Assembly (NCBI GenBank): GCA_965365595.1
Contig: CBDUCG010000003.1
Location: forward strand, 1-35,500
Source of the DNA: an uncultured bacterium
Lineage (GTDB): Bacteria; Desulfobacterota_D; UBA1144; Nemesobacterales; UBA2774
Direction of reading: 5' to 3'
Length of the DNA stretch: 35,500 bases
Of this stretch, positions 3,089-15,684 are shown piece after piece. The notes under the pieces were generated by a model. The model saw only the letters and a list, made by a program, of their open reading frames with translations, did no database searches and was not told where the DNA came from. Every line of letters begins with the position of its first letter. Positions within the stretch are counted from its first letter, which is position 1. The position numbers and the translations under genes are program-made.

Positions 3089-3165
3089 GGGCGATTAGCT
3101 CAGTGGATTAGAGCGCAGGCCTCCGAAGCCTGAGGTCGGGGGTTCGAATCCCCCATCGCCCGCCA
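3089..3165 (+). tRNA. tRNA-Arg (anticodon CCG)
   Basis: GGGCGAT/ATCGCCC acceptor stem, TAGCTCAGTGGATTAGAGC D arm, CAGGC-CTCCGAA-GCCTG anticodon arm, GGTTCGAATCC T loop, encoded CCA. Confidence 0.97.
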
Positions 3166-3277
3166 TTATTGTCAATGATTTAGGATAGTTAGCGTTATTT
3201 TACATCAAGGCAAACATTGATGAAATATTTCTAGGTGTCTACTAAAAAATAAAGAGTTATTATTTCACTTTTTACTA

Positions 3278-4498
3278 TCAGAAGTAATAGCTTAGGCTCA
3301 AATCTACAAAGCTATCATTTGAGAAACCGCTAAAAATTGTATCTTGCTCAGGATTCATAAATAATCTGCACACAAGCTCTAGAACAACGCTGTCCCCGAT
3401 TCGCCTTGATGCCTCAACAATGCCTAACATCTCAGCATTTTTAGTATCAGTCGTTAAACCGATTAAAACTTGAGTGTCATTGGTATCGTTGAGCGCTAAC
3501 CGTAATCCCCCGAATATATCATTATCAAAAAAAGTAGGAGGCGCGAATTCTATGTTTCCATCTCGTCCATCATATAAATATTCTGAGACGAATCCCAGAT
3601 CTGCGTCAGTATTAAATAATTGAAAGGTGGTGTATTCAAATCCGAATACAGTTGCAAAAAAATATGGCCCCTGTCCTCCCCTCCCAATTGCTTCTAGTTT
3701 AAGAAGCCAGGCATCCCTTGTCCATTGAATATCAAGTCCAACTTGATTTATTATTGTGTAAAAGGGTCTGAAGAACATGTTCCCATTTTGCTTTTCTTCA
3801 ACAAGAAATATAGGCTCTCTGCTTGTTCCCCAAAAAAAAGAGAGCCCAATATCAAACTCTTTAATAGTGTTAAACCACCTAAATGCAAAATCAGGATGAA
3901 ATTCTTTAAGATCTGATTCATATTTAGGATCGTCACTGATTGGCAGAGGTCCCCTTAAGCGTGCATCCGCTGACGGGAAGGTCCTCTCTCTAAAGAAAGG
4001 CATATAGTAAAGTTCAAAGGCACCGATATTACTATCATATATTATATTTATCATTGGTTGGCCTAGCTTATCTTCATTATCTAGATCCTCAACAAAATCG
4101 ATTTGGTTAATAATATCAACAAGATGTCTAGATTCCGTAACTCCCCAAAAAACAATGTCATTTCCGACAAGCAGCGACCAATTCGTTGCAGTGTGCAACC
4201 AATTTCCTTCTCTAATGTCAAAGTGCGTTCGATCATCGTCCTCTAGATCATATCTAAAAAAAGGTATGAGGGTTAATCTGTCATTTCCACCACTGAATTC
4301 ATAACTAACCTCCGGCTCTAGTTTGATTGAAGGATCAAAATGGTAATTGTCTTGGTCCGAAAATTTGACATCTTCAGGGAAAATTCTCAAACCAATCGAT
4401 ACATTACCACCGTAATCCCACTCACCAGCCATTACATCCTGAAAAAAGAAACATGTAATAAAACTGATGAGATAAAGACTTATACGCACCAGTATCAC
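3278..4498 (-). CDS. Putative outer-membrane beta-barrel protein (partner of MMPL and LolA-like genes)
   Basis: Signal-peptide-like N-terminus, WGVTESRHLVDIINQ motif, C-terminal aromatic residue (LSYYF). Likely GTG start at 4498 overlaps the upstream TGA (GTGA); track start is 4561. Confidence 0.8.
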   Translation of the reverse strand: MILVRISLYLISFITCFFFQDVMAGEWDYGGNVSIGLRIFPEDVKFSDQDNYHFDPSIKLEPEVSYEFSGGNDRLTLIPFFRYDLEDDDRTHFDIREGNWLHTATNWSLLVGNDIVFWGVTESRHLVDIINQIDFVEDLDNEDKLGQPMINIIYDSNIGAFELYYMPFFRERTFPSADARLRGPLPISDDPKYESDLKEFHPDFAFRWFNTIKEFDIGLSFFWGTSREPIFLVEEKQNGNMFFRPFYTIINQVGLDIQWTRDAWLLKLEAIGRGGQGPYFFATVFGFEYTTFQLFNTDADLGFVSEYLYDGRDGNIEFAPPTFFDNDIFGGLRLALNDTNDTQVLIGLTTDTKNAEMLGIVEASRRIGDSVVLELVCRLFMNPEQDTIFSGFSNDSFVDLSLSYYF

Positions 4499-5289
4499 CT
4501 TTCTCTTTTCAACTTGTTTGGAGTATAAAAGTTTTCTTTTTGTCCTAGATTGAATTCCCATTTTTCAAACACAAGATCAGTGCTCTTTCCTGTTTGATGG
4601 TTCTGCATACTCAACAAACGGGCTCTCCAGTAGTTATCCAGATACTGGCTGTAATCCGAGTATACTAGTGTTTTGAGAAGAGAATTTTTTCTGTCGTAGA
4701 ACTCAATTTGCTGAATTCTAAATTCTTCTTTATCCCACCATATGATCTGTTTTGTATAGCCAGAATTATCATATAACGGGACTCTCTCGACTTTATAACA
4801 CTCCAGATTATCACAGAGCTCCTCACCCAAGAACTTATAGCTGTATTTGTCCACTTCCTGAGACAAAAGGTCTTCATAGGCAAACTCGCTCCCGACAAAA
4901 GGACCTGACTTATTTGAAGAAGATATTCTTTTCACTCTCTTTAATGCCGGAAGATAAAGCCATTGATCGTCCGGTTTGAGAATTTTTGTGTGTGAAAGTA
5001 GAGCTGTATCCTTTATGTCTTTAGGAGAATCAAACACTACGATACTCTTATCTCCCATACCCGGCTCATTTACCTCAAATGCAAATCTCCTGAATTCTCT
5101 AATGCTCTCCTCTCCTTGACTGTTTCTTAGTACCATTTTGGACGCTGATTGATTGTCATGCCAACCCATATCCCTTTTATCAGCCTCCACAGCAATTTCC
5201 ATTCCCTGTTCTTCAGGAGTTTTTGCGCTCGCAGCAACACATAATCCCAAAATTATTAACAAAACAAGATTTAATCGATATATATACAT
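4495..5289 (-). CDS. Outer membrane lipoprotein-sorting (LolA-like) protein
   Basis: Signal peptide; DDQWLYLPALKRVKRISS and FVGSEFAYEDL are typical of the LolA-like family. Start overlaps the MMPL stop (TGATG). Confidence 0.88.
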   Translation of the reverse strand: MYIYRLNLVLLIILGLCVAASAKTPEEQGMEIAVEADKRDMGWHDNQSASKMVLRNSQGEESIREFRRFAFEVNEPGMGDKSIVVFDSPKDIKDTALLSHTKILKPDDQWLYLPALKRVKRISSSNKSGPFVGSEFAYEDLLSQEVDKYSYKFLGEELCDNLECYKVERVPLYDNSGYTKQIIWWDKEEFRIQQIEFYDRKNSLLKTLVYSDYSQYLDNYWRARLLSMQNHQTGKSTDLVFEKWEFNLGQKENFYTPNKLKRER

Positions 5290-15176: not shown

Positions 15177-15293
15177 CTAGTATTGGTTCTGATGAATACC
15201 GTACTCGTTGCATATCTCAGATACTGGTCTACCAGACAAGCCTTCGAGTACTATCTTGGTCTTGGTTTTAGTGTCCCATCTCCTTCGCTTCAT
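15177..15293 (-). pseudogene. IS3-family transposase OrfA remnant
   Basis: GGGAGGGAG RBS, then MKRRRWDTKTKTKIVLEGLSGRPVSEICNEYGIHQNQY*. This is an HTH pattern of IS3 OrfA cut by TAG, just inside the IR at 15338-15366. No orfB follows. Confidence 0.8.
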
Positions 15294-15337
15294 TGCTCCC
15301 TCCCATACCTTTTACAAAGTATTTTACCAACTTAACT

Positions 15338-15366
15338 ATACTGTGTTCTTAATGGGGAGCAGTATA
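15338..15366 (-). repeat. IS3-family left inverted repeat
   Basis: Reads TATACTGCTCCCCATTAAGAACACAGTAT on the minus strand, upstream of the orfA remnant, and directly abuts att arm C. Confidence 0.8.
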
Positions 15367-15684
15367 AGGTATCCAAATAGGTGACCATTTTGGGACAATT
15401 CGTCATGATTTGCCTAGTTTAGTTCGGATTGGATATATGAAATTAATTTAAATGATTAAAGCTTGTTAGAATTTATCTGAATTAGTATGGATTAGTACCC
15501 ATCTTTAGTGAAAACGCCCTCCGAAGCCTGAGGTCTGGGGATTGAATCCCCCATCGCCCGCCTTCATTTGTTATTAATGCTTTGTATCAGTAATGTTATC
15601 TATGACTGGTTTCTCGTCCGCATACATCACACTTTCTTTCTAGCAAACGGTAGAACTTTTAATTTTGTCTAGGAATTTACTCAT
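15367..15684 (+). repeat. att-like repeat copy C: arm + tRNA-Arg 3' half + flank running into the Mut7-C gene 3' end
   Basis: AGGTATCCAAATAGGTGACCA arm; tRNA match at 15518-15562 with 3 mismatches in 45; downstream flank alignable to copy A. Confidence 0.92.

Follow-up and report, generated by a model that had tools for sequence, protein, structure and literature searches.

Integrons hold accessory genes as ordered, promoter-poor units between recombination sites, with the newest unit nearest to the insertion point; intI, attI and Pc stand at the head of the array, and the units are single, mostly promoterless open reading frames (ORFs) in one orientation, each ending in attC. Tyrosine integrases of the lambda and P4 types are heterobivalent, with arm-binding, core-binding and catalytic domains, and their arm sites lie on both sides of the core. 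Here we analyse a 35,500-nucleotide stretch of DNA (the window) from an uncultured bacterium of the Desulfobacterota_D (GenBank assembly GCA_965365595.1, contig CBDUCG010000003.1), in which the 3' part of a tRNA-Arg(CCG) gene recurs behind a conserved arm and bounds a series of gene modules. The window is the entire contig, C3, of a metagenome-assembled genome (MAG) of 2.2 Mb in 276 contigs, which is 91.5% complete. Two described systems are close to this arrangement. The cis-mobilisable elements (CIMEs) of the ICESt1/ICESt3 family of Streptococcus thermophilus are bounded by att sites, devoid of integration and transfer genes, and subject to tandem accretion (PMC5704250). The tycheposons of Prochlorococcus are tandem elements separated by partial tRNAs and accompanied by degenerate remnants (bioRxiv 10.1101/2020.12.28.424599). 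The locus examined here is probably, at roughly three chances in four, a tRNA-Arg(CCG) integration hot spot carrying a tandem stack of island modules that have no integrase of their own, and we give the same probability to serial site-specific accretion as the process that produced these CIME-like modules.

The only tRNA called in the window by ARAGORN and Rfam is the intact tRNA-Arg(CCG) gene at 3089–3165 (+), which serves as attL; from its anticodon loop onward (3120–3167) it forms the block of identity with the copies downstream. A family of 196-nt direct repeats occupies 8716–8911, 12541–12736 (78% identity) and 15367–15562 (86%), at spacings of 3825 and 2826, and the final ∼48 nt of the repeat correspond to the stretch of the tRNA that begins at the anticodon loop and runs to its 3' terminus. 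Taken from the tRNA side, the 3' part at 3117–3167 is repeated at 8864–8914 (98%) and 15515–15565 (86%), giving a first spacing of 5747. A preliminary description of this DNA had reported three copies of the tRNA 3' part, each behind the same arm of ∼150 bp, and our repeat search returned the identical three spacings. Within this genome the 196-nt repeat is confined to this locus. The three arms, each of 151 nt, are 83.4–84.8% identical in pairwise comparison, and all components are on the forward strand: P arm 1 (8716–8866) is followed by core r1 (8867–8914), P arm 2 (12541–12691) by core r2 (12692–12736) and P arm 3 (15367–15517) by core r3 (15518–15562). The proximal core was said to be exact and the other two decayed, and this holds: r1 matches the tRNA 3' part at 48/48 positions and, with the complete P arm 1, forms the attR of module 1; in r2 decay is heavy over the T-arm and acceptor part but has spared the anticodon-loop part; r3 is 93% identical.

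Shuffle controls exclude a chance origin of these repeats. A 16-nt arm motif, allowing up to three mismatches, occurs three times in the window against 0.16 expected, and none of 100 shuffles reached three; a 25-nt word from the tRNA 3' part also occurs three times, against 0.00 expected. In a Smith–Waterman scan for cores, four sites score 102, 97, 75 and 36, the next best 23, and the shuffle maxima 18–25. Right of 15562, the motif, word and Smith–Waterman scans found no additional cores or arms in the window.

It is scarcely credible that the arrangement is an artefact, whether a chimeric or mis-assembled contig or a structured non-coding RNA family made up of arm and tRNA half. The 276 contigs of the MAG and the tRNA-like sequence within the repeat could be cited in favour of such a view, but contigs from other public runs and studies span three of the junctions: from the HxlR gene to arm 1 (X3, 7851–8868), from the alpha/beta hydrolase gene through arm 2 and core r2 to the serine hydrolase gene (X1, 12194–13389; X1 may be the sample behind the window assembly) and from a core to Mut7-C (X13). 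The layout is therefore not peculiar to this one assembly, which speaks against the assembly artefact named as a possibility in the preliminary description. On the RNA side, Rfam finds only the tRNA, and a structured-RNA reading of the arm was rejected after RNAalifold analysis of five copies, in which 0/51 pairs had a compensatory change and the covariation term was positive. Runs with matches to the window sequence are mostly labelled as sediment metagenomes.

The arms start sharply at a 20-nt motif, GGTGTCCAAATAGGTGTCCA, which comprises two direct AGGTGTCCA half-sites 11 bp apart. In arm 1 the motif, as GGTGTCCAAATAGGTGTC, lies at the outer edge (8717–8734); in arms 2 and 3 it lies at 12542–12557 and 15368–15383. 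Relative to the 3' end of the core it is found at −180 to −193 in the attR of the window (three copies), G002 and G004. On the P arm it stands ∼135 nt 5' of the core, and on the P' arm it is found at +74 to +76 past the intact tRNA. The latter position is seen in G001, G003 and G004, which are the three congeners with an integrase, and in G004 two copies of the motif bracket a 17.5-kb integrase-bearing island. The enzyme, a tyrosine integrase of 354–377 aa, is encoded in the tRNA-adjoining module of these three genomes and of G020, which belongs to the same family; the four proteins show 69–84% identity to the first of them and match PF00589 and Int_N, the G020 protein additionally matching Arm-DNA-bind_2. 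Further relatives of the integrase occur in MAGs titled Candidatus Dadabacteria and Thermodesulfobacteriota. The islands of G004 and G020 each carry a DnaB-N/AAA_25 helicase, together with a Schlafen-like helicase in G004 and UmuD/UmuC-like and SRAP proteins in G020; the cargo of the G003 island includes a type ISP restriction enzyme and a HigB/HigA-like pair. Among the ORFs scanned in the integrase islands of relatives there was no conjugation module.

The motif geometry shared with the integrase-bearing congeners bears out the earlier proposal that the repeats are tRNA att junctions of a tyrosine integrase, and comparison of the sequences identifies the arms as the attR P-arms of a tRNA-targeting member of that class. 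The 20-nt motif is most likely the arm-type site of the integrase, and attP would span about 330 bp. As in lambda- and P4-type systems, direct-repeat arm sites would flank the core within attP and the tRNA 3' part is duplicated on integration; in contrast to them, the window encodes no such integrase, and Xis and IHF sites were not identified. In every attR (r1–r3, G002_c2, G004_c2 and the metagenome loci) the sequence is GCC-CTCCGAA, against GGC-CTCCGAA in the tRNA, and because identity with the tRNA starts there in every copy, the crossover would fall in or after the anticodon loop. The att architecture, the status of the modules as insertions, their order, the lack of an integrase and the traces of decay are documented directly; we infer the binding of the motif by the integrase, the exact position of the crossover and the mode by which the integrase was lost.

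On a MAG contig (L071, 5179–6485) a 74%-identical integrase lies beside tRNA-Asp(GTC)/tRNA-Val, with the same motif ∼75 bp from tRNA-Asp(GTC), which indicates that the motif travels with the integrase and not with the target tRNA. That contig is titled Ectothiorhodospiraceae and may be mis-binned; it appears to represent the same integrase family retargeted to another tRNA. We also considered whether the arm could be a remnant of the 3' coding end of the integrase gene, and rejected this, as only nine residues of the G001 integrase tail (STIDTYLDT) map on the motif. In G003 and G004 the motif lies ∼3 kb from the integrase genes, so it is a site in the DNA onto which the end of the G001 gene extends by chance. 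A viral origin was likewise rejected: no viral contig matched the motif–core pattern (0 found), and the sole relative of the integrase in the viral collection is 24% identical.

The extent of the inserted DNA can be read from congeners in which the site is empty. In G006, 26 bp separate the tRNA from a homologue of window 30089–30423, which is followed by 30555–35498, and the empty site in G005 is similar; in G008 the flank (30545–35498) resumes 1.57 kb past the tRNA, without the gene for a 115-aa protein that precedes it in the window. At the nucleotide level the window flank is 75–78% identical to the sequence beyond the tRNA-Arg site of G005, G006 and G008, and beyond the last core of G004. 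Because congeners show the empty site, the whole of 3168–30086 (∼26.9 kb) is insertion; the modules are thus real insertions, as had been supposed, whereas the limits of 3089–15562 given earlier for the array fall far short of the inserted DNA. Boundaries of the att type survive only in the tRNA-proximal 12.4 kb of it. GC content is 0.34–0.39 within the insertion and 0.43–0.44 in the flanks. Upstream, where a uracil-DNA glycosylase (UDG) gene and the tRNA form the array head, the LeuRS–UDG–tRNA-Arg order is kept at 17/17 loci of relatives that include this side. In L054 (G019:C7) and L055 (G010:C5), ARAGORN calls two complete tRNA-Arg(CCG) genes 0.65–0.9 kb apart, and G019 has two separate contigs that each carry LeuRS–UDG–tRNA-Arg.

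In many relatives a single contig contains the tRNA 3' part several times over, and it is the distribution of modules among these relatives that gives the order of insertion. A 202-aa gene, which lies at 28175–28783 (−) in the window, constitutes in G002 and G004 alike a module of 0.7 kb flanked by cores, between c2 and c3. The 115-aa gene (30095–30442, −), which is either the most ancient module or the beginning of the conserved flank, lies beyond the last core in G004 and comes directly after the tRNA in G005 and G006, with a core remnant after it in G005. At the other end, module 1 has no DNA match in the nine congeners, and none of the window's 17 downstream proteins was found within the ∼20 kb examined per relative, bar one weak hydrolase match. 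Newest-first insertion at the tRNA, as originally suggested, follows from the sharing of distal modules with G002, G004, G005 and G006 while the proximal ones are unique. Comparison of relatives at tRNA-Arg(CCG), proposed at the outset, showed content that differs between them.

A search for the enzyme that might have inserted these modules gave no candidate in the present genome. With the PF00589 profile there was no match on the window contig, the four matches in the genome being on C10, C230, C30 and C222, and Pfam scans of 29 of the larger ORFs, chosen across the window (five without a hit), revealed no integrase, excisionase, relaxase or phage gene, in agreement with the preliminary description. 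In tblastn searches the integrases of four congeners had no significant match in the genome, the best being 26–42% identical fragments of other families. The excisionase families HTH_17 and AlpA had no match in the genome, 91.5% complete, at E values up to 0.01, and the arm motif was found nowhere in it outside the three window arms. AAA_25 has nine matches in the genome, none on the window contig; the two above the cut-off are frames of 457–460 aa, which we take to be housekeeping genes. A scan of the window for promoters and terminators showed no enrichment, with 35 promoter sites against 41.8 expected.

The assembled contigs of four public runs (contigs only, not reads) contained no circle or empty-site junction, and thus no sign of excision. 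Two joints in X13, 8908 to 15567, which connects a core to the Mut7-C flank, and 12464 to 3133, were considered as circles or deletions and set aside; they are best explained by better-kept cores in a related strain, and because cores are repeats such joints are not evidence of either event. Parts of the window not covered in X13 (e.g. 12857–14924) cannot be read as absence.

The lack of an integrase is not peculiar to this window. Ten relatives have at least two cores in the DNA examined, and in these we counted 19 bounded modules of 0.45–22 kb, a set that includes the 22-kb G002 c3–c4 module, partly syntenic with another G000 contig and possibly a rearrangement, as well as motif-less arrays of genera g2, g4 and g6 that may involve other integrases. 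PF00589 is present in two of them (G004 and G020), both tRNA-proximal, leaving 17 without an integrase; in G001 and G003 the integrase is likewise in the first module. A metagenome scan for the pattern motif–gap–core returned 10 loci. Three of these contigs (L063, L065 and L067) have r1-type arms (89–92% identity) adjoining different cargo, namely a methyltransferase and a thioredoxin, a GDSL lipase, and a sulfatase, respectively. In all six arm copies homology begins exactly at the motif. L067 contains single-gene modules (a sulfatase; a pentameric ligand-gated channel), each starting after the core with the same 70-bp P' (98.6% identity). In L068 a 61%-identical integrase is followed by two cores. 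None of the four modules of L067 and L068 carries an integrase.

These observations bear on the suggestion, made in the preliminary description, that the modules are dedicated non-autonomous cassettes which never had an integrase, consist of cargo and an att arm of ∼200 bp, and circularise under the action in trans of the integrase of a transient helper. The high proportion of integrase-less modules (17/19 in relatives and 4/4 in L067 and L068), free of integrase fragments, is what such cassettes would give, as are the single-gene modules of L067 that open with the same P', an arm conserved from the motif inward with different abutting cargo in six contexts, and the restriction of integrase-bearing units to the position beside the tRNA, where transient helpers would be. 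Against this, no helper integrase was found in the genome, whose sole copies of the motif are those of the three arms; the window modules lack an arm-type motif on the P' side; each module holds 2–4 genes, which run in both directions and apparently include regulators of their own; decay is clear, in the Mut7-C deletion and IS3 remnants described below; and in L067, G002, G004 and G005 there are several cores that no P arm accompanies. The run contigs contained no circle junction either, and the skip joint from 8908 to 15567 need not be a deletion, a point that weighs little as it comes from contig data. On balance we consider such cassettes unlikely, and mobilisation in trans found no backing in the genome or in the junctions of the run contigs. 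The preliminary description had itself named, as a result that would count against cassettes, full integrase-bearing islands of which the modules are remnants; islands of this kind, with the same motif at this tRNA, do exist in G001, G003 and G004, so half of that case is in place.

The wider form of the same idea, in which tRNA-Arg(CCG) would act in this Dadabacteria-like genus as an ordered, integron-like gene-capture platform built on double-stranded tRNA att sites, with a transient, replicative helper whose arm-binding tyrosine integrase would add and remove cassettes during its stay in the proximal slot, is in our judgement similarly doubtful. The analogy with integrons holds for the ordered array with the newest unit nearest the insertion point and fails on the defining features. 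The window array has no adjoining intI or attI, and the contig has no integrase; the sites are tRNA-derived double-stranded cores with arms, for which no fold is supported, and not attC hairpins; and there are several genes per module, in both orientations. The integron-like form put forward at first therefore does not stand.

The preferred reading, serial accretion followed by loss of the integrase, can be set out as follows. Integrative elements of one family would enter repeatedly at tRNA-Arg by site-specific recombination, with a crossover located within the anticodon loop or immediately 3' to it. The tRNA would be restored every time and earlier arrivals displaced, so placing the newest element nearest the tRNA, and an attR composed of the ∼150-nt P arm and the displaced tRNA 3' part would be left behind. 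The enzyme would be a tyrosine integrase with N-terminal arm-binding, core-binding and catalytic domains, such as is present in the congeners and not in this genome. Autonomous elements would combine integrase and helicase; the integrase unit would be transient, while the cargo modules persist and erode. A process of this kind has been published for CIME accretion (PMC5704250) and for the islands that tycheposons build in Prochlorococcus (bioRxiv 10.1101/2020.12.28.424599). The window modules would then be CIME-like, either as decayed elements or as cargo left when an integrase-bearing unit excised alone. Erosion would proceed by deletion, IS3 insertion and decay of the cores until, farther from the tRNA, the att sites vanish.

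Several points weigh against this account. The decay of the cores does not rise steadily with distance from the tRNA, as r2 is worse affected than r3. No fragment of an integrase pseudogene was detected in the integrase-less modules, in searches at E values up to 10 in the window and below 1e-4 in 20 stretches from relatives and the 10 metagenome loci, so that simple decay of integrase genes in place is not documented and one must suppose that they were cleanly deleted or excised separately. The sequence shared downstream of r1 and r3 (114 bp) requires the additional assumption that both of the next modules began with the same P'–Mut7-C segment. None of the window modules has the P' motif in full, which leaves the att pairs incomplete: on their left side the modules have a core and a P' stub of ∼40–70 bp. 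The P' arm of module 1 (3168–3245, +), for example, has the shared proximal block AATGATTT..AGTTA and contains the sole surviving half-site, a single AGGTGTC at 3233–3239, ∼+68 from the tRNA end. The motif was found in 3/33 genomes of the family, all of genus g1, and arrays outside the genus may have other causes. Two genomes of other genera have two complete tandem tRNA-Arg genes according to ARAGORN. Finally, that the integrase binds the motif is something we infer from the sequences.

The sequences that follow cores r1 and r3 carry a record of decay. The 114 bp after r1, the P' arm F' of module 2 (8915–9028, +), are ∼80% identical to the 122 bp after r3 (15563–15684), and the sequence common to the two downstream sides includes a 36-bp identical block. 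After r1 this sequence ends in the last 12 codons of a Mut7-C gene (8985–9028, −), whereas after r3 the Mut7-C RNase gene is intact (15640–16431, −); Mut7-C is present in 2/10 genomes of the genus. In G006 (C4:914941–915208) a segment equivalent to window 9026–9298 is retained at 94–95% identity, 88 bp from the start of a Mut7-C homologue. Because G006 keeps Mut7-C beside the same segment, module 2 would originally have had the order core–P'–Mut7-C–Memo and later lost Mut7-C. The identity of this segment, set against about 79% for the core genes of the two genomes, suggests its recent movement between lineages. The G006 copy of the Memo/Mut7-C segment lies 166 kb from tRNA-Arg, beside an insertion sequence (IS) end.

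Elements of the IS3 family have also left traces. A remnant at 15177–15366 (−) includes a truncated OrfA (15177–15311, −; PF01527, E = 5.6e-6) and an IS end at 15366 that abuts arm 3, and a solo end at 12435–12474 (+), inverted relative to the copy at 15325–15366, stands 67 bp outside arm 2 (which starts at 12541). The statement that the modules contain only cargo needs correction for these two IS remnants. The element is multicopy in the genus, with a fuller copy, including an rve OrfB, in L063 (335–1843). L063 represents a sister strain that is 98% identical over FtsH and diverges from the window right of 26092; in it an arm and core follow ∼1.3 kb after a stretch like window 28023–28121, in a region where the window has neither. 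An attR present in the sister strain thus appears to have been lost from the window. IS3 ends also occur ∼45 bp downstream of cores in L062 and L068. Their recurrence at or near att sites may reflect target preference or chance.

The same features could be taken to mean that the arm and core, with or without flank, were duplicated locally by unequal crossing-over or IS3 rearrangement, with no integrase involved and with unrelated DNA filling the gaps. The arm, core and ∼114 bp downstream that r1 and r3 share, including the identical block, would fit such a duplication, as would the IS3 ends, one abutting arm 3 and the other 67 bp outside arm 2, and the position of the L063 copy at the breakpoint relative to the window. 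However, the copies differ by 15–17% and so are not recent; the same geometry of motif, spacer and core is found in other genomes with an unrelated spacer; the left limit at the anticodon loop is the same in all copies; r1 is 92.5% identical to L067 and only 84–85% to r2 and r3; and the shared downstream segment is explained by G006, through a common P'–Mut7-C left end followed by deletion. Local duplication is therefore very improbable.

The bounded modules of the window are 5.5, 3.6 and 2.6 kb in size. Module 1 (cargo span 3168–8715) encodes a 427-aa protein with no Pfam match (3278–4561, −), a LolA-like protein (4495–5289, −), an MMPL/RND transporter (5289–7640, −) and an HxlR-family regulator (7929–8588, +). 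Module 2 (8915–12540) encodes a Memo-like protein (9091–9924, −), a radical SAM enzyme (9988–11133, −) and an alpha/beta hydrolase (11498–12397, +); the first two (9091–11133) form a pair of the AmmeMemoRadiSam type carried as cargo, with no adjoining AMMECR1 gene recognised. Module 3 (12737–15366) contains, besides the IS3 remnant, a PF00144 serine hydrolase of the beta-lactamase fold (12782–14029, −) and a 259-aa lipoprotein-like protein (14336–15115, −), its N-terminus judged by eye.

The remainder of the insertion (15563–30086), in which no att site is left, contains P' arm F and the genes for Mut7-C, GT2, Usp, SAM synthetase, PCMT, baeRF, ICMT, FtsH, a PolX-like HHH protein, the 202-aa protein and DUF6607. 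The S-adenosylmethionine synthetase (19733–20944) is of the archaeal type (PF01941, E = 4.5e-150) and is found in 4/10 genomes of the genus. Three forward-strand island genes at 21369–23893 encode a PCMT protein-repair methyltransferase, a release-factor-like protein of the baeRF family and an ICMT-like membrane methyltransferase. The FtsH-family protease gene (24074–26056) is full-length and lies in DNA that is absent from the G006 site, and an attR-bearing metagenome contig, L066, carries two FtsH-like AAA genes. The conserved chromosomal flank (30542–35500) encodes BipA, a dynamin-like GTPase and a DsbH-like protein.

Of the systems considered at the outset, CIMEs resemble the locus in that related elements, arriving by site-specific integration, pile up one behind another at the 3' end of a gene, and in that autonomous relatives with the same att specificity exist (in G001, G003 and G004; the present genome yielded none). 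The window modules carry no recombinase or excisionase families and keep attR arms and cores, but on the left they have only a core and a P' stub. In place of the CIME target there is a tRNA, with a putative crossover at the anticodon loop; the autonomous relatives carry an integrase and a DnaB-like helicase, with no conjugation module in the ORFs scanned; and the helper is absent from this genome and the P' arm-type site is missing. Tycheposons combine a tRNA-specific tyrosine (or large serine) recombinase, a small replication module (helicase/primase) and cargo, a combination to which only the G004 and G020 islands, with their tyrosine integrase and DnaB-N/AAA_25 protein, may correspond here; in both systems, a partial tRNA separates neighbours and arrivals push older elements inward. 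The present case differs in phylum and in its sediment habitat, and the window itself has neither recombinase nor replication module; in the portion of the tycheposon account available we have seen no counterpart to the long conserved P arm and its defined arm-type motif, which characterise this system. The titles and opening lines of abstracts in the literature on Dadabacteria genomic islands contain no description of this locus, and the tycheposon supplements may hold comparable att data.

By itself the locus represents fairly ordinary island accretion with integrase loss, and reveals no new mechanism. If the cassette-platform reading were true, it would amount to an integron-like array on double-stranded tRNA att sites, with some cassettes of a single gene, as in L067. 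As it stands, the locus offers a clean, well-bounded case of flexible genes accumulating at one tRNA in an uncultured sediment lineage. The defined att architecture, with a core crossover region, a spacer of ∼135 nt and a 20-nt arm motif, together with a candidate integrase family, would make it easy to plan a two-plasmid recombination assay or a survey of populations at the level of reads. The locus also extends to another phylum the pattern seen in Prochlorococcus, in which integrase-bearing elements are transient and island genes without an integrase persist.

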